DNA of 64,000 nucleotides from a virus (taxonomy: Duplodnaviria > Caudoviricetes), in IMG/VR virus record IMGVR_UViG_3300021254_000033, positions 14,586 to 78,585 of that record; one strand, 5' to 3'. Positions within the stretch are counted from its first letter, which is position 1. Each line of letters begins with the position of its first letter. Positions 2,759-63,880 of this stretch are shown piece after piece. Below the pieces are notes generated by a model. That model had not been told where the DNA came from and did not search any database. It saw only the letters and a program-made list of their open reading frames with translations. The position numbers and the translations under genes were made by a program.

Positions 2759-3244
2759 ATGGAAAATAAACAAGTTTTTTTGACAAGCACTTCTAAAGGT
2801 TATGTTGTAATTAATATCCCAGATCTTCATTTGAAGAGAATATGGGAAAAGAAAGGTGCGAAAAAGCCTATTGCTTTTGATATATTACAACAAGCTATTT
2901 ATGATCCAAGTGTGGAATATTTACTTTCTCAAGGTATTTTAACTATTGATGATTTAGATATAAAAATTGCTTTAGGTTTAGAATCTGAAGAAGCAAAAGA
3001 AACTGGTAAAGTTAATATTGTTGTTCTTTCTGATAGTGATATGGAGAGATATTTAACAGTTATGCCAGTTTATGAATTTAGAGAAAAAATTAAAGATTTA
3101 AAGAAGGAACAAATTTTTTCTTTAGTAGATTATGCTATTGAACATGAATTAACAAACATGGAAAAAGCAGATATTTTAAAACAATATACTGAAATTGATA
3201 TTATTAGAGCGGTACAATTAAATAGAGAAGACAAGGGGGAATGA
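2759..3244 (+). CDS. Hypothetical virion-module protein
   Basis: 161-aa ORF with RBS, in the structural operon. Confidence 0.5.
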   Translation: MENKQVFLTSTSKGYVVINIPDLHLKRIWEKKGAKKPIAFDILQQAIYDPSVEYLLSQGILTIDDLDIKIALGLESEEAKETGKVNIVVLSDSDMERYLTVMPVYEFREKIKDLKKEQIFSLVDYAIEHELTNMEKADILKQYTEIDIIRAVQLNREDKGE

Positions 3245-3248
3245 TAAA

Positions 3249-3677
3249 ATGACTCCTTATTGGACAGTTTATGACGCTTTTTTAAGTAAAACTCTTGAAG
3301 ATGAATGGGGAGATTGGATGGAAGAAGAAGTGGAAACAGACCTTCGCCAACTTTTAGAAGGCGCGATTGCACACTTTAAATTTCCTAGAGTTTCTTTAGA
3401 AAGAGATGAAGAAGGGTTTATTAATGATTTAGGCAGTGAAGAAATTCAAATCTTAGCTACATATATGAAATGTGAATGGTTAAATCGGTCTATTATGACA
3501 TGGGAAAATGTTAAACCTTTATATGAAGAGAGAGATTTTTCTCAAGCTAATTTATTAGATAAATTGAAAAGTACTCTAGAAGCAGAACTCACCCATGCCG
3601 CGCGACTTGAAGGATTTTATTATAGATCAATAAAGGGGAGAAGTTATTCTTATAGTAATTTAGCGGGAGGTAATTAA
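3249..3677 (+). CDS. Putative head-tail connector/adaptor
   Basis: 142-aa helical protein; position after capsid genes. Confidence 0.45.
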   Translation: MTPYWTVYDAFLSKTLEDEWGDWMEEEVETDLRQLLEGAIAHFKFPRVSLERDEEGFINDLGSEEIQILATYMKCEWLNRSIMTWENVKPLYEERDFSQANLLDKLKSTLEAELTHAARLEGFYYRSIKGRSYSYSNLAGGN

Positions 3678-3678
3678 A

Positions 3679-3951
3679 ATGTATGACAATCCCGTGAAAG
3701 AAGGTTATTATAATAAATTAAAAAGTAAATTATTTGGTTTACTTTGTGAATTTGAAAAAGGTAGAGAATGGGAAAAGTTTTTAGATTCAATTATAATTGA
3801 GGTTAGTGGTTTTCCTGAAGAAGAAAAAACTATTAATTACTATATTCTTTATCATAAATTAGCTTCTCTTCGATATTTAAGATATGAATATTTTCGGACA
3901 ACTATTTTTGATTGTATGGATTTATTAGGGAAAGGTGATGTTAATGGCTAA
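3679..3951 (+). CDS. Hypothetical neck-module protein
   Basis: 90-aa ORF, tightly packed, GGGAGG RBS. Confidence 0.5.
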   Translation: MYDNPVKEGYYNKLKSKLFGLLCEFEKGREWEKFLDSIIIEVSGFPEEEKTINYYILYHKLASLRYLRYEYFRTTIFDCMDLLGKGDVNG

Positions 3952-4675
3952 CTCTTCAAATTATTATGATATTTATTTGATGAGATTGAATAGATATGGT
4001 CTTAACTATCAAGAACGGACACAGAAAAAAAGAGAAAGAGAGTTTGAAGATTATATGCTTAAAAGTGTATATAGGATAGAGTTTGAATATGATAGTGATA
4101 TTCATCCTGCAACTTTTGAAAAATATAAATATGATGAAACTAAAACACTTCATTATCTTTTAACAAGAGTGTCTTTAAATATTCCTAATGGAACTATTTT
4201 AATGTTGCCCGATAAAGATAACGAATTAAATCCTTGGATGGTTTATTATTTAGAACATATTAAAGCTAGTGGATATAATAGATATATTATGTTAAAAATG
4301 ACACATTATCTTACTTGGACAGGACGTGACAAAAATGAATATTCAACATGGGGATATATGTATGGACAAGAAGACAATATGTTGAAAGATGAGTTACAAT
4401 CCCGCTCACGGTCAGATGCACGATATACAGAAAATTTGAAACTGAGTTTCTTTGTTATTCCTACTAATGAACATATTCGAAAAGATGATTATTTAGAAGT
4501 AGGTGAAGGTGCGTTAAAAGAAGGATATAGAGTTACCGGTTATGATATTCAGTCAACTCCAGGAGTTGAGTTTGTCACTGTTGACCCAGTTTATCTTTAT
4601 GATTTAACTCCATCGCCAGAAAAAACAGCTCAAGATTCTGATGAAGAATTTTATTGGCTTGAAGGGGGTAACTAA
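3944..4675 (+). CDS. Putative head closure/neck protein
   Basis: Start moved to ATG 3944 (RBS AAAGGTGA); beta-rich; syntenic position. Confidence 0.45.
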   Translation: MANSSNYYDIYLMRLNRYGLNYQERTQKKREREFEDYMLKSVYRIEFEYDSDIHPATFEKYKYDETKTLHYLLTRVSLNIPNGTILMLPDKDNELNPWMVYYLEHIKASGYNRYIMLKMTHYLTWTGRDKNEYSTWGYMYGQEDNMLKDELQSRSRSDARYTENLKLSFFVIPTNEHIRKDDYLEVGEGALKEGYRVTGYDIQSTPGVEFVTVDPVYLYDLTPSPEKTAQDSDEEFYWLEGGN

Positions 4676-5166
4676 TGGGAGTTAGAAATTGTCAAGAGAT
4701 AGGGGAAAATTTACAAAAACTTGTAAGTCGTTTAATGGCTAATAATGATTTAATAAATCTTCTTTATTATACTGATAAAGATCCCCTTTCACATCCTCAT
4801 TTAACAGAAGAACAAAAAAGACAAGAGGTTTATGAAAAATTAATTAAAGTAGTGCCGCGCGTGGGTCCGAAAGAAACTGCAACTTCAATGGTTGTTATTA
4901 GAGTTGCGCGAGGTACTAATAATTTAGAAAATACTGAATTTAGAGATATTTTAATTGAAATAGAAGTTTTTGTTCCTCTAACACAATGGATTATTAAGAA
5001 TAGTAATTTAAGACCTTTTGCAATTATGGGAGAGGTACAAAAAAGTTTAAATGGAAAGACTATAAATGGATTAGGAAGAATGACTGGAGGAAATTTTGAA
5101 CTAAACTTTTTATCAGAGGAAATGAGCTGTTATTTGCAACAGTTTAGATTAACAACTTATGATTAA
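4675..5166 (+). CDS. Putative tail terminator/completion protein
   Basis: 163 aa; TAATG stop/start overlap; position before the tail tube gene. Confidence 0.45.
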   Translation: MGVRNCQEIGENLQKLVSRLMANNDLINLLYYTDKDPLSHPHLTEEQKRQEVYEKLIKVVPRVGPKETATSMVVIRVARGTNNLENTEFRDILIEIEVFVPLTQWIIKNSNLRPFAIMGEVQKSLNGKTINGLGRMTGGNFELNFLSEEMSCYLQQFRLTTYD

Positions 5167-56608: not shown

Positions 56609-56706
56609 ATTTTTTTATATTATTTAGAATTTGATTTTTTTTATTAATTAATTAAAATCGTACACGCGTGCGCGCATTAATTATAATAGGAAGAAACAGG
56701 GGAAAT

Positions 56707-56735
56707 TTGATTTTTTTTAAAAAAATTGATATAAT
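56707..56735 (+). promoter_or_regulatory. sigmaA-type rightward promoter
   Basis: TTGATT-N17-TATAAT. Confidence 0.8.
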
Positions 56736-56768
56736 TTTAATATAAAATGAAGTTGAGAGGGGATTCTA

Positions 56769-57089
56769 ATGGCACGAGTAACAATGACACCCGAAAAGAT
56801 TATAGAGGTAAATGAGCTGTACTTGAAATTGGGTACATATTCTGCTGTTAGTAGAGAATTAGGTGGTAGCCCAAGTCCTTCAACAGTAAAGAAATATATT
56901 ATCCCTAATTATGTAAGTAAAAAGGATATTTCCGCAGCGAGAAGAACTTATCATATAGAGGATTTACCTGATTTCGATATTAAGGAATACGTTGACCTAA
57001 TTAAAAGTAATAATTGGGGAGAGGTGTGCGTTTTATCCGAAGAGGAAAATGCTGAAGTTGAAGAATTATGGAAGGAGTTAGAATATTGA
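56769..57089 (+). CDS. Helix-turn-helix protein
   Basis: ELYLKLGTYSAVSRELG..PSTVKKY HTH-like segment. Confidence 0.6.
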   Translation: MARVTMTPEKIIEVNELYLKLGTYSAVSRELGGSPSPSTVKKYIIPNYVSKKDISAARRTYHIEDLPDFDIKEYVDLIKSNNWGEVCVLSEEENAEVEELWKELEY

Positions 57090-57466
57090 TTAAGGTTTTT
57101 TATTATGATGAATCTCCAGTTAACCCTCCTTATGGTATTCTTCGAGTGGATGTAGAAAAAATTCCGCATGGTAAGATGAGTGGTAGCTGGAATATTCTGC
57201 CGGCGCGCCTTCTGGGTATTAATTATGCAGATTATCTACGTTTTTGTAGAGATGTTCTTAATGCTCAAATTGTAGGGAAAAATACAAAATACCCAATTCC
57301 TTATTTTAGACAATCAAATGAAACACAACAATTTATTCGCTTATTAAATAAGAGAGTAGAATTACTTTTTTGGGAACGGGATCATCCTACTTTTTGGGAT
57401 AGAGTTTCTGAAAAAGAATTTGAAGAAGAATATGTAAAAGTTTGGGAGCAAACCAATCGAAAGTAA
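57068..57466 (+). CDS. Hypothetical protein
   Basis: ~130-aa ORF; start may be TTG 57086. Confidence 0.55.
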   Translation: MEGVRILIKVFYYDESPVNPPYGILRVDVEKIPHGKMSGSWNILPARLLGINYADYLRFCRDVLNAQIVGKNTKYPIPYFRQSNETQQFIRLLNKRVELLFWERDHPTFWDRVSEKEFEEEYVKVWEQTNRK

Positions 57467-57497
57467 TTTATTTTGTAAGCTATCTAAATATTATATA

Positions 57498-57550
57498 GAG
57501 GGGAGAAGTGCTTTATCCTTTCCTTTCCTTTCCACTTCTCCCCTCATTTT
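57498..57550 (+). other. 13-bp hairpin with 22-nt pyrimidine loop
   Basis: GAGGGGAGAAGTG/CACTTCTCCCCTC perfect stem; loop CTTTATCCTTTCCTTTCCTTTC. Confidence 0.75.
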
Positions 57551-57551
57551 G

Positions 57552-57621
57552 ATTATGTAATCGCACCATTGACAGTCACAAGTCTGTAAAATCTTTATTA
57601 AGTGAAGCGAGAGTGCATAGT
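57552..57621 (+). ncRNA. Twister self-cleaving ribozyme, type P1
   Basis: P1 ATTATG/CATAGT; UAA; P2 TCGC/GCGA; P4 ACAG/CTGT with loop TCACAAGT; pseudoknots AC:GT and CAC:GTG; conserved GAG. Confidence 0.88.
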
Positions 57622-57624
57622 GAG

Positions 57625-57654
57625 AACTTTCATTGGTTAATGAAAGTTTTTTTT
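57625..57654 (+). terminator. Intrinsic terminator immediately after the ribozyme
   Basis: AACTTTCATT-GGTT-AATGAAAGTT plus T6. Confidence 0.7.
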
Positions 57655-57680
57655 ATTATTCTTTAGGGAGGAGATACAAA

Positions 57681-57881
57681 ATGACAAGAGATCACTTAAG
57701 AAAAGTTGGTGAATTTTATATTCATTTAAGTAAAAAAATGCCAGATGATTGGTTTGCTGAAAATGATATGATGACTACTATTGCTGCTTTTTCGATTATC
57801 TATGGTGGATTAATAAGTCAAGAGCTGTCGCCAGAGGCACTGTTCGGAGAAATGGGGAAAAATGTTTGTATTGAAGGATAG
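57681..57881 (+). CDS. Hypothetical protein
   Basis: Start moved to ATG 57681 (GGGAGGAG RBS). Confidence 0.55.
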   Translation: MTRDHLRKVGEFYIHLSKKMPDDWFAENDMMTTIAAFSIIYGGLISQELSPEALFGEMGKNVCIEG

Positions 57882-57901
57882 GTTTAAAAAGGAGATATAA
57901 A

Positions 57902-58072
57902 ATGACAATAGGATTAATAAGAATGATTATTCAAGTAATATTAATTGTTGCATTAATTATTAATATTATATATACATATAAACTTGTTAAAGCCTATAAG
58001 ACAAACACAGAGGTTTGTACTTTTTTATTAAAAAGTTGGAAAGAAAAAGGAGTTTATAAGGAAGAAAAATAA
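57902..58072 (+). CDS. Small single-pass membrane protein (56 aa, not in ORF track)
   Basis: MTIGLIRMIIQVILIVALIINIIYTYKLV hydrophobic stretch; AAGGAG RBS; TAATG overlap with next gene. Confidence 0.65.
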   Translation: MTIGLIRMIIQVILIVALIINIIYTYKLVKAYKTNTEVCTFLLKSWKEKGVYKEEK

Positions 58073-58374
58073 TGATGGGAGCAGAAAAAACGCTTGTTAG
58101 TGTCAACAAAGGAGAAGACGCATATAGCGTTATTGGTGATTATATTTTGAATCACATAACAGCCATCGAAGATATGATTGCGGTCATTCAGATCAATGGC
58201 GTAATAATAAAAGAATTGTATATGGTCGATGTGGACGTTGATGGGTATTTCTATTGGAAAAGTGATTGGTGGGAAGGAGAAGAGGATGTAAATTTACTTG
58301 ATTTCTTTCCAGTAAGTGACGCGGAAAGATTCAAATGGATCTCAGTTTACGTTTTTGTCAATAGTGTGAAATGA
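58072..58374 (+). CDS. Hypothetical protein
   Basis: 100-aa acidic ORF, DWWEGE motif. Confidence 0.55.
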   Translation: MMGAEKTLVSVNKGEDAYSVIGDYILNHITAIEDMIAVIQINGVIIKELYMVDVDVDGYFYWKSDWWEGEEDVNLLDFFPVSDAERFKWISVYVFVNSVK

Positions 58375-58390
58375 AGGTGGAGATAATAAA

Positions 58391-58795
58391 ATGAAAGGTT
58401 TGTTTATACCAGGAATGACAGTGGAAAAGTTCCGCAATAAATGTTTTGAATCAATCGAGACTCTTATAGCAGAAGATGAAATTTTCGATATTGACTATGA
58501 TCCAAGACATATTCCAGCTATCAGAGATAAGCTATGGGAAATTCAACAATGTTCAAACTGCGTTTTAAATTCAAAAAAGAAAATAGTGGAAATAGAGCCG
58601 CCATGGATTCCTATCTCTAAGGATCTACCAAAGATAGGAAGGCGGGTATTAGTTACAAGGGAATGGGAAGGAGACCGCTACATTGAAAAAGACATGAGGC
58701 TCAAATACTCATGGATGGAAGACGAAATTTGCGGTGGCAAGGTGGTAGCCTGGAGGGCGTTACCAAAGCCTTATCAAGGCGGTGATGATGAATGA
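58391..58795 (+). CDS. Hypothetical protein with C-terminal DUF551-like domain
   Basis: WIPISKDLP..VLVT..VVAWRALP. Confidence 0.6.
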   Translation: MKGLFIPGMTVEKFRNKCFESIETLIAEDEIFDIDYDPRHIPAIRDKLWEIQQCSNCVLNSKKKIVEIEPPWIPISKDLPKIGRRVLVTREWEGDRYIEKDMRLKYSWMEDEICGGKVVAWRALPKPYQGGDDE

Positions 58796-62225: not shown

Positions 62226-62299
62226 CGCGGGTTCGTATAAAGGAAGTACACAAGGCTCATTACCTTGATATGCCAGTTCGAGTCTGGTGCCCGCATCCA
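62226..62299 (+). tRNA. tRNA with CAT anticodon (Met/fMet/Ile2 identity ambiguous)
   Basis: Cloverleaf; CAAGG-CTCATTA-CCTTG; TTCGAGT T-loop; encoded CCA; C1:A72 mismatch. Confidence 0.85.
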
Positions 62300-62393
62300 A
62301 AACATGGCATCTCCTTTTAAATAAAAGTCCTCAAAATCCTCCAGTTTTCCAGAGTACGTCGCGGAGGTAAAACCTAAACTGGAATTAGAAGGA

Positions 62394-63013
62394 GAATAAT
62401 GCTCTTTAAAAATATTATATGATAACTCAGTGCTAAACCATATCTCGCAGATATGGCTGAGAAACGTCGAAAAGTGCTCGGCAGGAAACATAAGGATACT
62501 TGTGCGTACTGGGCCGCCTTCTAAGTCGCGAGGCTTAGTTGGAAGGATGAACTCCGAAAGTAAAGACGTTGTGCTAATTTTATCGCAAGTAATTGTAGTA
62601 TGCGTATGGGCGGCGCAATAGAAGCCTTCTTTAAGAGAGTTGGCTGAATCCAAGTTAGGTATTAGCTGGTGACTGTTACAAACCTTGGAAATACCAATAA
62701 GCCGTTTTGCCGTGAGATCGTAGAAATACGAAGTATAACATATGTATGCAACTCTGAGTAGCTCAAGGCAATGCAGTTAGGTTAGAAAGATTTAACAAGG
62801 ATTATGAGGATAATATATGTTAAGTTCTTGGTGAATTGTGGGTGAAAAGTGGAGGTAAACAATCCTCTTAGAGTATAAGGGAAACCTGGGGTGAAAAAGT
62901 CATAGGCTGACGGGTCTAGGCTCACAGTCATCTCCTCTATGACAGAATATGCTTGAAGGTAAAAGATAGTAAGACGAAGGTCTATTGTATGATATTTTTA
63001 AAGGGCATTATTT
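62394..63013 (+). ncRNA. Large (620 nt) ornate ncRNA, ROOL/GOLLD-class candidate
   Basis: 30-bp terminal helix 62394-62423:62984-63013; many internal stems, GNRA loops and crossing pairings; no credible ORF; flanked by tRNAs. Confidence 0.75.
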
Positions 63014-63039
63014 AGGTGTTATGATTGTTGTGTTGGTAG

Positions 63040-63073
63040 ATAACACCGTAGATAATGCGGTGTTATTTTTTTT
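63040..63073 (+). terminator. Intrinsic terminator after the large ncRNA
   Basis: ATAACACCGTA/TGCGGTGTTAT stem plus T-run. Confidence 0.8.
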
Positions 63074-63100
63074 ATTAAAAATTTTTAGGAAGATTATCAT

Positions 63101-63176
63101 AGGCGTTTGGTGAAGCGGTGAACACACAGGACTTTGACTCCTGCATACGTTGGTTCGAATCCAACAGCGCCTGCCA
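63101..63176 (+). tRNA. tRNA-Gln(TTG)
   Basis: Cloverleaf; CAGGA-CTTTGAC-TCCTG; GGTTCGAATCC; CCA. Confidence 0.95.
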
Positions 63177-63345
63177 AGTTCATGTGCCAAGAGTACAAGG
63201 AACTCCTGTTGACGAGAGTAAATAAATCTATAGTAATATTGCTCTCGTTAATTGCAACTGCGCAGTTATGTCACTGCGCCGCATCCTTCAAGGAGAAATT
63301 AAAGGAGCCGCCTGCTGGAGGCAAGTTCGCAATATCCAGCAATAT

Positions 63346-63431
63346 GGAGAGGTACTCAAGTGGTTAAGAGGACGGTTTGCTAAACCGTTAGGTCGCAAGG
63401 TACGTGGGTTCGAATCCCACTCTCTCCGCCA
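63346..63431 (+). tRNA. tRNA-Ser(GCT)
   Basis: ACGGT-TTGCTAA-ACCGT; long variable arm; G73; CCA. Confidence 0.95.
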
Positions 63432-63629
63432 CATAGGGATGATGTATAGCGGATAAAGCACCCTGGTGAGTAGCTAACACCATAAAAAGTTCGAAACTAA
63501 CCGCTGGCTATGTTTTTAGGAGTTTTTACCAGTCTAAAGAAGGACAGAAAACTTTAGTAACGTTACCAGTTTTTGGTTACCTGCTACACGCTCGCACGTA
63601 GGAAAACCAATACTTCTATATGCCGTATT

Positions 63630-63692
63630 TCAAGGGGCGGTGGTAGTGGATACCTTTAGGTGGAATGATTCGACTTCATTACTGTCCTTTGA
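63630..63692 (+). ncRNA. tRNA-like element lacking an anticodon arm
   Basis: 12-bp closing stem; D-like arm GGTA-GTGGA-TACC; T-arm AATGA-TTCGACT-TCATT; only 9 nt between the arms; no CCA. Confidence 0.55.
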
Positions 63693-63727
63693 TACTTGAC
63701 ATATAGAGGATAACCTATTTTATTTTT

Positions 63728-63801
63728 GGGGGCGTAGTTAAATGGGATAACAGCGGTCTCCAAAACCGTAGTTGTAGGTTCGATTCCTACCGTCTCTGCC
63801 A
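63728..63801 (+). tRNA. tRNA-Trp(CCA)
   Basis: GCGGT-CTCCAAA-ACCGT; GGTTCGATTCC; CCA. Confidence 0.93.
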
Positions 63802-63804
63802 CAT

Positions 63805-63880
63805 GGGAAAGTAACTCAACGGTTAGAGTGGGGTTCTTATAAAACTCTGGTAGGTGGTTCGACTCCACCCTTTCCTACCA
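63805..63880 (+). tRNA. tRNA-Ile(TAT)
   Basis: GGGTT-CTTATAA-AACTC; GGTTCGACTCC; A73; CCA. Confidence 0.9.

Follow-up and report, generated by a model that had tools for sequence, protein, structure and literature searches.

A sub-threshold type-P1 twister ribozyme between a conserved hairpin and a terminator: a candidate RNA-processing module of uncultured phages

What would a self-cleaving ribozyme do between a stable hairpin and a terminator in a phage genome? The question is raised by positions 57498–57654 (+ strand) of a 64,000-nt stretch of DNA (hereafter the window), which is part of the 78.6-kb IMG/VR virus record IMGVR_UViG_3300021254_000033, from an uncultured phage of the gut/rumen type. 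The preliminary description had read this segment as a twister ribozyme placed between a hairpin with an anti-Shine–Dalgarno (SD) loop and a terminator, possibly giving rise to a regulatory sRNA.

The module lies within a + strand block of small early-type genes, and a divergent – strand block encodes RNase H, dNMP kinase and a 369-aa ORF whose counterparts in relatives are ligase-like. Directly 5' of the hairpin region is an early pair of ORFs of 106 and 132 aa (56769–57466, +), preceded by a promoter-like site, TTGATT-17-TATAAT with TG (56707–56735, +; 10/12 matches). No terminator-like site was detected on the + strand between 56735 and 57498, and this promoter-like site is the probable source of transcripts running into the module. 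The 132-aa ORF (57068–57466, +) has homologues of 98–45% identity and stands immediately 5' of the hairpin in all relatives. Its product matches no PHROG family; the only Pfam match, to ArlS_N, is sub-threshold (14.9 bits; cut-off 27), and a Foldseek search of the PDB with an AlphaFold model of the protein (pLDDT 83) returned nothing significant (best E 0.26, TM ~0.3). On the other side of the module, the RBS AGGGAGGAG and a 66-aa ORF with a likely ATG at 57681 occupy 57665–57881 (+). We found no promoter between the terminator and this ORF, which therefore depends on read-through. Hairpin and ribozyme are free of overlapping ORFs of at least 30 aa on both strands, the sole listed frame overlapping the module being a TTG-started version (from 57633) of the downstream gene. 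A blastn search of 56700–58400 against GenBank phages gave no match. The same phage carries a full-length ROOL RNA (window 62402–63002; Rfam RF03087, 291 bits) with five tRNA genes around it (62226–63877), a cluster 4.4 kb downstream of the module; ROOL is also present in the relatives L134, L137 and L138 (296–307 bits).

A type-P1 twister with exchanged pseudoknot bases

Positions 57552–57621 (+) can be laid out, element by element, as a type-P1 twister that lacks P3, on the combined basis of the Rfam alignment, an independent model and covariation. P1 (57552–57557/57616–57621) comprises six pairs including one G-U, P2 (57561–57564/57607–57610) is paired at 4/4 positions and P4 (57572–57574/57585–57587) at 3/3. 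The twister mapping further places loop L4, GUCACAAGUC, at 57575–57584, pseudoknot T2 (AC:GU) at 57565–66/57582–83, pseudoknot T1 (CAC:GUG) at 57577–79/57613–15, and a 19-nt insert with a weak CUU/AAG stem at the P5 position (57588–57606). The GAGUG strand (57611–57615) begins with G57611, the predicted general base, and cleavage is predicted between U57558 and A57559. The conserved positions are all present, namely A57559, G57611, A57612, an L4 of the form G-U-NNN-A-A-NN-C, ACC after P2 and AA before the P2 3' strand; the conserved UAAA reads UGAA in the window, as it does in several other natural twisters. The pseudoknot bases are AC, CAC, GU and GUG in the window versus GC, CCC, GC and GGG in the consensus.

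The preliminary description had proposed a search with the Rfam twister-P1 model, and its outcome is divided. The full model (RF03160, positions 1–68) aligns to 57554–57619 with 32.8 bits (E-value 1.8e-5 in a 351-nt search and 9.4e-7 over the whole 78.6-kb record), and this score is under half of the gathering score of 67.2, for which reason a default Rfam scan reports no twister. The loss of score results from the absence of P3, the 19-nt insert at P5 and the compensated pseudoknots, which a covariance model cannot credit. The ribozyme segment folded alone has an MFE z-score of just –1.05; hairpin, twister and terminator coexist when folded as one 176-nt RNA (z = –4.9).

Twisters of this subtype are found in many other viral contigs. 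A pattern in which only the pseudoknot-variant bases were fixed (AC / GUCACAAGU / GAGUG) matched more than 100 stretches from viral contigs, 42 of them distinct and with perfect P2 and P4, whereas a near-exact pattern for the window ribozyme found no match there. The spacing without P3 that characterizes the window recurs in 14 of the 42, and a model built from those 14 unrelated viral twisters only gives the window 37.6 bits (E~5e-9 over 199 kb). One viral contig carries three separate twisters of the same subtype within 2.7 kb (L039:4625–7306).

The most telling line for twister identity is the covariation among homologous loci, as read from their sequences. These relatives were found via the neighbouring 132-aa protein and not via the RNA: a scan of viral contigs with the single protein sequence gave no match, and alignment-based scans succeeded. 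With RNase H as the anchor, the best relative was 47% identical, too remote for a comparison of intergenic DNA, and the twister descriptor gave no hit at those loci. The homologous site holds seven distinct twisters with three T1, two T2, at least four P2 and four P4 types, all complementary. The window shares with L142, L143 and L134 the set P2 UCGC/GCGA, T2 AC:GU, P4 ACA/UGU and T1 CAC:GUG. L135 has P2 UCAC/GUGA, T2 AC:GU, P4 GCA/UGC and T1 CAC:GUG, and L137 has P2 CCAC/GUGG, T2 GC:GC, P4 ACA/UGU and T1 UGC:GCA. P2 ACUU/AAGU, T2 GC:GC, P4 ACG/CGU and T1 UCC:GGA are common to L147 and L177, and L166 combines P2 ACCU/AGGU, T2 AC:GU, P4 GUG/CAC and T1 UCC:GGA. We counted covariation in an Infernal alignment of 18 sequences that was fitted to the nested helices only and hence was blind to the pseudoknots. 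In this alignment 95.3% of paired cells are complementary, compared with 63% in shuffles and 27–44% with slid partners, and both sides have changed in 16/18 pairs. P2, P4, T1 and T2 are 100% paired and P1 85.8%; P1, P2 and P4 covary, and covariation of the pseudoknots rests on the six protein-anchored rows, since 12/18 rows were ascertained with fixed pseudoknot bases. P1 is imperfect in L134; in twisters P1 is dispensable and its imperfections are tolerated, the pseudoknots being essential (PMC5408937).

The Rfam alignment and the covariation agree with the elements, the cleavage site and the catalytic G57611 that had been assigned from the letters alone, and the compensated bases noted in both pseudoknots turn out to be a variant shared by many viral contigs, with covariation between the homologous loci. 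At the level of sequence, 57552–57621 is thereby confirmed as a genuine, previously unannotated, sub-threshold type-P1 twister, and we consider it very probable that its RNA would cleave in vitro.

The hairpin at the P0/L0 position

Upstream of the ribozyme, 57498–57545 (+) forms a hairpin of 13 perfect pairs (–23.5 kcal/mol, z = –5.2) whose folding energy was matched by 0/200 shuffles. It consists of a purine 5' arm (57498–57510), a 22-nt loop (57511–57532) and a pyrimidine 3' arm (57533–57545), the loop being 95% pyrimidine with CCUUU / UCCUUUC / CCUUUC repeats. A 6-nt linker, AUUUUG (57546–57551, +), leads to P1. The stem, the loop with its CCTTT repeats and the distance to P1 are all where the preliminary description had put them. 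As a companion of the twister, the hairpin has precedents. An auxiliary stem-loop immediately 5' of P1, with or without a linker, has been described for twisters as P0/L0 (PMC11662667), and P0 was also listed in a 2016 twister review (PMC5408937); a hairpin that ends at 57545 ahead of a P1 starting at 57552 occupies this position, and the pairing of hairpin and ribozyme is therefore not new. In the CHiTA survey, P0/L0 was present in ~10% of tested candidates, and twisters with it cleaved less completely in vitro (0.40 versus 0.85; PMC11662667). What is new, judging from the related loci, is the lineage-specific form of the hairpin, a large stem-loop with a conserved loop motif.

Hairpins at this position are frequent in the subtype as a whole. 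Among 43 distinct AC/CAC/GU/GUG-subtype twisters from unrelated IMG/VR contigs (L002–L110), 29 (67%) have a P0-type hairpin ending 0–8 nt before P1, compared with 16.6% of random positions. This frequency is also far above the ~10% of P0/L0 in the CHiTA set (PMC11662667). In these unrelated contigs the hairpin usually ends 4–5 nt before the cut and its loop is ordinary; the distance from hairpin to cut is 13 nt in the window.

Within the lineage, the loop is the part that has been kept. UCCUUUC is found in the loop of 14/14 related hairpins, which have 13 distinct, purine-rich 5' arms and loops of 15–41 nt, pyrimidine-rich in most (59–100%), and even the shorter CCUUUC turns up in just 11% of composition-matched shuffled loops. 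Loss of the pyrimidine loop had been named beforehand as an outcome that would speak against the preliminary description, and the loop has been retained. All wobble pairs in the related hairpins (11/11) join a G of the 5' arm to a U of the 3' arm and can form only in + strand RNA, which argues for an RNA rather than a DNA structure. The order of hairpin, linker and twister is kept in seven distinct loci, and the hairpin–ribozyme–terminator order, whose conservation in homologous phages had been put forward as a check, is found in close relatives. Four loci have the hairpin without a ribozyme (L138, L184, L161 and L167), and protection of a 3' end after cleavage can therefore not be its only role; in L138 and L184 it follows the stop codon directly, with neither promoter nor ribozyme.

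Four other structures were considered for the hairpin and rejected. A triple helix of purine arm and pyrimidine loop would place the CCUUU repeat out of Hoogsteen register with the arm and oblige the loop to double back. Between the RBS of the downstream gene and either the loop or the 3' arm, at most five contiguous pairs can form, and relatives do not conserve them. As a classical terminator, 57498–57545 would have only a moderately U-rich tail, AUUUUGAUUAU, and relatives have no U-run after the hairpin. The antiterminator of HK022 put RNA reportedly must stay tethered to the polymerase; the cut would sever such a tether, and a put-like hairpin was rejected by this reasoning only.

Promoters, terminator and exchangeable RNA cargo

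A weak promoter-like box, TTTATT-N16-TATTAT (57467–57494, +), can be read from the sequence between the 132-aa ORF and the hairpin. It matches at 3/6 and 5/6 positions and is not reported by the promoter scan; it is positionally homologous to strong promoters in relatives. In L161, L166, L167, L177, L144, L147, L135 and L137 these stop ~7 nt short of the hairpin region. Near-consensus examples are TTGAAA-17-TATAAT in L177 (11/12) and TTGATT-17-TATGAT in L135. In more distant relatives the promoter end is followed after ~7 nt by a conserved TAGAAAGU box and then by the hairpin, which in these promoter-bearing loci is the first predicted structure of the transcript.

At the other end of the module, a predicted intrinsic terminator (57622–57654, +; z = –3.6) has the stem AACUUUCAUU/AAUGAAAGUU, a GGUU loop and eight U. 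Its core stem (57625–57634/57639–57648) belongs to a stem of 10–13 bp, and the U-run (57647–57654) follows directly, the arrangement of stable hairpin and direct U-run that defines an intrinsic terminator. The terminator-like hairpin reported 4 nt after P1 is thus at its claimed place; with two G-C pairs in its stem, it escapes a consensus terminator scan. L134, L135 and L137 share a homologous terminator, with the stem ACUUCCAU/AUGGAAGU; relative to this stem, the window shows a single compensatory change, C-G to U-A. In the unrelated contigs, most twisters of the subtype are followed within 10–40 nt by an RBS and start codon, not by a terminator.

The slot between twister and terminator is empty in the window and in L142 and L143, and in L134, L135, L137, L147, L166 and L177 it holds 100–200 nt of RNA, or tRNAs. 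In L134 it contains a G+C-rich, ORF-free segment of ~190 nt (3560–3750) that gave no Rfam match at E <= 0.1 and may be an uncatalogued structured RNA. The slot spans ~100 nt in L135. In L137 a 79-nt tmRNA-like element (3579–3657) starts 18 nt after the twister and is followed by ~60 nt. This element scores 52.1 bits with the Rfam tmRNA model (cut-off 47), a match that covers the tRNA-like domain only, with no mRNA-like part; its acceptor stem of 7 bp includes G3.U70, and it contains a T arm as well as a GGUUUCGACG box. ARAGORN makes no call here, and the element may be a phage-encoded mimic of the tmRNA domain. L177 is laid out as promoter (276–304), hairpin (318–360), twister (365–421), tRNA-Leu(UAA) (424–510, two bases on from the twister) and four more tRNAs; in L166 a terminator-like hairpin stands between the twister and a tRNA array.

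The tRNA genes of these relatives have peculiarities of their own. The L166 array includes an ARAGORN tRNA with a four-base anticodon (aaaa; 4612–4703). L161 has an intact tRNA-Leu(UAA) (2977–3061). The homologous sequence of L167 (2975–3020) matches it only as far as the anticodon loop, and ARAGORN calls no tRNA there; the L167 gene may be interrupted by an intron or disrupted. A large-loop hairpin with ACAUAAAUA in its loop lies just before tRNA-Leu in L161 (2926–2975), L167 (2924–2975), L166 (3040–3098) and L144 (~985–1035), with a GGAGGA/GGUGGAG box on its 5' side and a U-run on its 3' side.

A possible role in RNA processing

The loci compared here belong to one lineage of uncultured phages, recovered from metagenomes of the gut and elsewhere, and their conserved order runs from the gene pair through an optional promoter, the P0 hairpin and the twister to RNA cargo that can be exchanged and, last, the terminator. 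From this layout we consider it probable (about 0.6) that the twister, the hairpin at the P0/L0 position and the terminator form a functional module of RNA-processing 'punctuation' after a conserved early gene pair. Transcripts would enter from the early promoter (56707–56735) and possibly also from the weak internal promoter (57467–57494), and the ribozyme would fold co-transcriptionally and cleave the U57558/A57559 bond. Upstream of the cut this would leave the early mRNA or, with an internal start, an RNA of ~60 nt; its last structure would be the stable hairpin, followed by 13 nt that end in a 2',3'-cyclic phosphate, and the hairpin would protect this 3' end regardless of whether the polymerase stops. 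The downstream product would begin with a 5'-OH at A57559; it would be a ~100-nt RNA of ribozyme body and terminator where transcription is terminated, and the mRNA of the genes beginning at 57681 where the polymerase reads through. With a cut near the 5' edge of the ribozyme, the early message or leader RNA would meet a different fate from the cargo or the read-through message; the conserved UCCUUUC loop probably has an additional role of its own. The fold, its covariation, the retained layout and the changing cargo are read from the sequences, and what we infer for the infected cell is cleavage, 3'-end protection and the uncoupling of upstream from downstream RNA. That relatives place tRNAs or other RNA cargo between ribozyme and terminator argues for punctuation, either in place of an sRNA or alongside one.

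Several observations weigh against punctuation. The Rfam score is under half of the gathering score, twisters with P0/L0 cleave less in vitro (0.40 versus 0.85; PMC11662667), the distance from hairpin to cut is 13 nt instead of the typical 4–5 nt, and the hairpin occurs without a ribozyme in L138, L184, L161 and L167. In the window, moreover, ribozyme and terminator adjoin with nothing in the slot, and cutting therefore adds little for terminated transcripts; its practical effect may be small, and the copy may be left over from a cargo-bearing ancestor.

The alternative that survives best, although we think it unlikely, is a trans-acting sRNA with the hairpin as its body. It would be made from the internal promoter or by trimming of the early mRNA, the twister cut would set its 3' end, and its C/U-rich loop would block purine-rich RBSs of host or phage mRNAs. 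Retention of UCCUUUC in 14/14 related hairpins despite changing stems would fit this proposal, as would the strong promoters of eight relatives, in which transcription would be expected to give a discrete RNA of ~60–75 nt between its start and the cut site. There is also a precedent in the unpaired UCCC of hairpin loops in RsaE, RNAIII and other RNAs, which binds the SD sequence (PMC2790875). The window hairpin shares with these Firmicute sRNAs a stable stem and an unpaired, conserved, RBS-complementary C/U-rich motif, which is sometimes present in several copies; it differs in that the motif is UCCUUUC and not UCCC and the 3' end would be made by a ribozyme instead of a terminator (PMC2790875). 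Complementarity of the loop to the RBSs of this genome, as claimed at the outset, holds for the AAAGGA-type flanks and fails for the GGAGG core, which is used by most genes here and with which the loop cannot pair. Six-mers complementary to the loop occur in 19/58 RBS regions versus 7% of background windows, an enrichment that any pyrimidine tract would give and that was counted at gene starts picked by SD presence, which favours SD-bearing starts. The promoter box of the window is weak (3/6, 5/6) and missed by the scan, the hairpins of L138 and L184 stand directly after a stop codon without promoter or ribozyme, and no specific target was found. A more far-reaching version, to which we give slightly less credence, would make the unit of promoter, hairpin and twister a ribozyme-terminated phage sRNA: its product, with a cyclic-phosphate end, would be the P0 hairpin, acting as a translational regulator or as a decoy for a host RNA-binding factor, and the 5'-OH would be handed to the exchangeable cargo. 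If true, this would give the P0 stem, and phage twisters generally, a concrete job.

Somewhat less plausible again is that the window ribozyme is a still-foldable remnant whose ancestral cargo has been lost and whose cutting is without consequence. The empty slot is confined to the window and the near-identical L142 and L143, six relatives (L134, L135, L137, L147, L166 and L177) carry RNA or tRNAs there, the tRNA/ROOL cluster of the window phage lies 4.4 kb further on, and L138, L184, L161 and L167 no longer have a twister at all. Against a remnant, the catalytic and pseudoknot positions are all intact and show no decay. The 98%-identical L142 differs from the window in the hairpin (in its stem and by a shorter loop) with an identical twister core, and L134, at 83% protein identity, keeps the same core. 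We regard as quite improbable the proposal that the hairpin mainly serves binding or control, its partner being for example the 132-aa protein or a component of the machinery for transcription or translation, with the twister as an unrelated neighbour. Such a role would suit a hairpin that adjoins the 132-aa gene at its 3' end in relatives whose protein is as little as 46% identical, whether a ribozyme follows or not, and whose single-stranded loop motif is conserved. No RNA- or DNA-binding fold can be recognised in the 132-aa protein, however, hairpins at the P0 position are general in twisters, and the polymerase tether that a put-like antiterminator is said to need would be severed by the cut. 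Finally, a chance resemblance of 57552–57621 to a ribozyme, to which the sub-gathering Rfam score and the segment's MFE z of only –1.05 might point, is very improbable given the E-values of the Rfam and independent models, the covariation of five helices with both pseudoknots included, and a subtype common to dozens of contigs.

Punctuation by this module would match the role suggested for bacterial twisters. In PMC6765202 (citing Felletti et al. 2017), processing of polycistronic transcripts is suggested for bacterial and phage twisters, with the biological role left unresolved. The window agrees with the mRNA processing proposed for bacterial twister and hammerhead ribozymes in having an intergenic, co-directional ribozyme near phage genes and a structure at the new 3' end, and differs in that the module heads tRNA or ncRNA cargo in relatives and is closed by a conserved terminator (PMC6765202). 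With the type-P1 twisters (Roth et al. 2014 via PMC5408937; RF03160; CHiTA, PMC11662667), it shares the order P1, UAA, P2, L2, P4, L4, GAG-type strand and P1, two pseudoknots, the conserved A and G, a cut 5' of the conserved A, an upstream hairpin with a linker and an insert at the P5 position. It departs from them in its score (32.8 versus 67.2 bits), the A-U pairs in both pseudoknots, the absence of P3, the 19-nt insert and an unusually large P0 whose pyrimidine loop is conserved in the lineage and which also occurs without the ribozyme. Theta (minimal HDV-like) ribozymes are likewise small self-cleaving ribozymes adjoining viral tRNAs in phages of similar metagenomes, with a cut at the ribozyme 5' edge that defines the 3' end of the upstream RNA, and belong to another ribozyme class (PMC10879173). 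In L177, because the twister lies upstream of the tRNA array, it would trim the leader hairpin and not a tRNA 3' end.

Thousands of twisters are known, and twister chemistry is well understood. For P0/L0 the only effect described so far is reduced cleavage in vitro (PMC11662667). Pseudoknot-compensated twisters such as this one score well below the Rfam threshold and are therefore likely to be under-annotated in phage genomes. The lineage described here amounts to a natural comparison series, with the ribozyme without cargo, the ribozyme with tRNA or other cargo, the hairpin without the ribozyme, and a strong promoter present or absent in front, and it makes the role of the cut and of the P0 hairpin directly testable. 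We believe that the value of the finding lies in this variant series, through which the role of phage twisters and of P0 becomes experimentally approachable.
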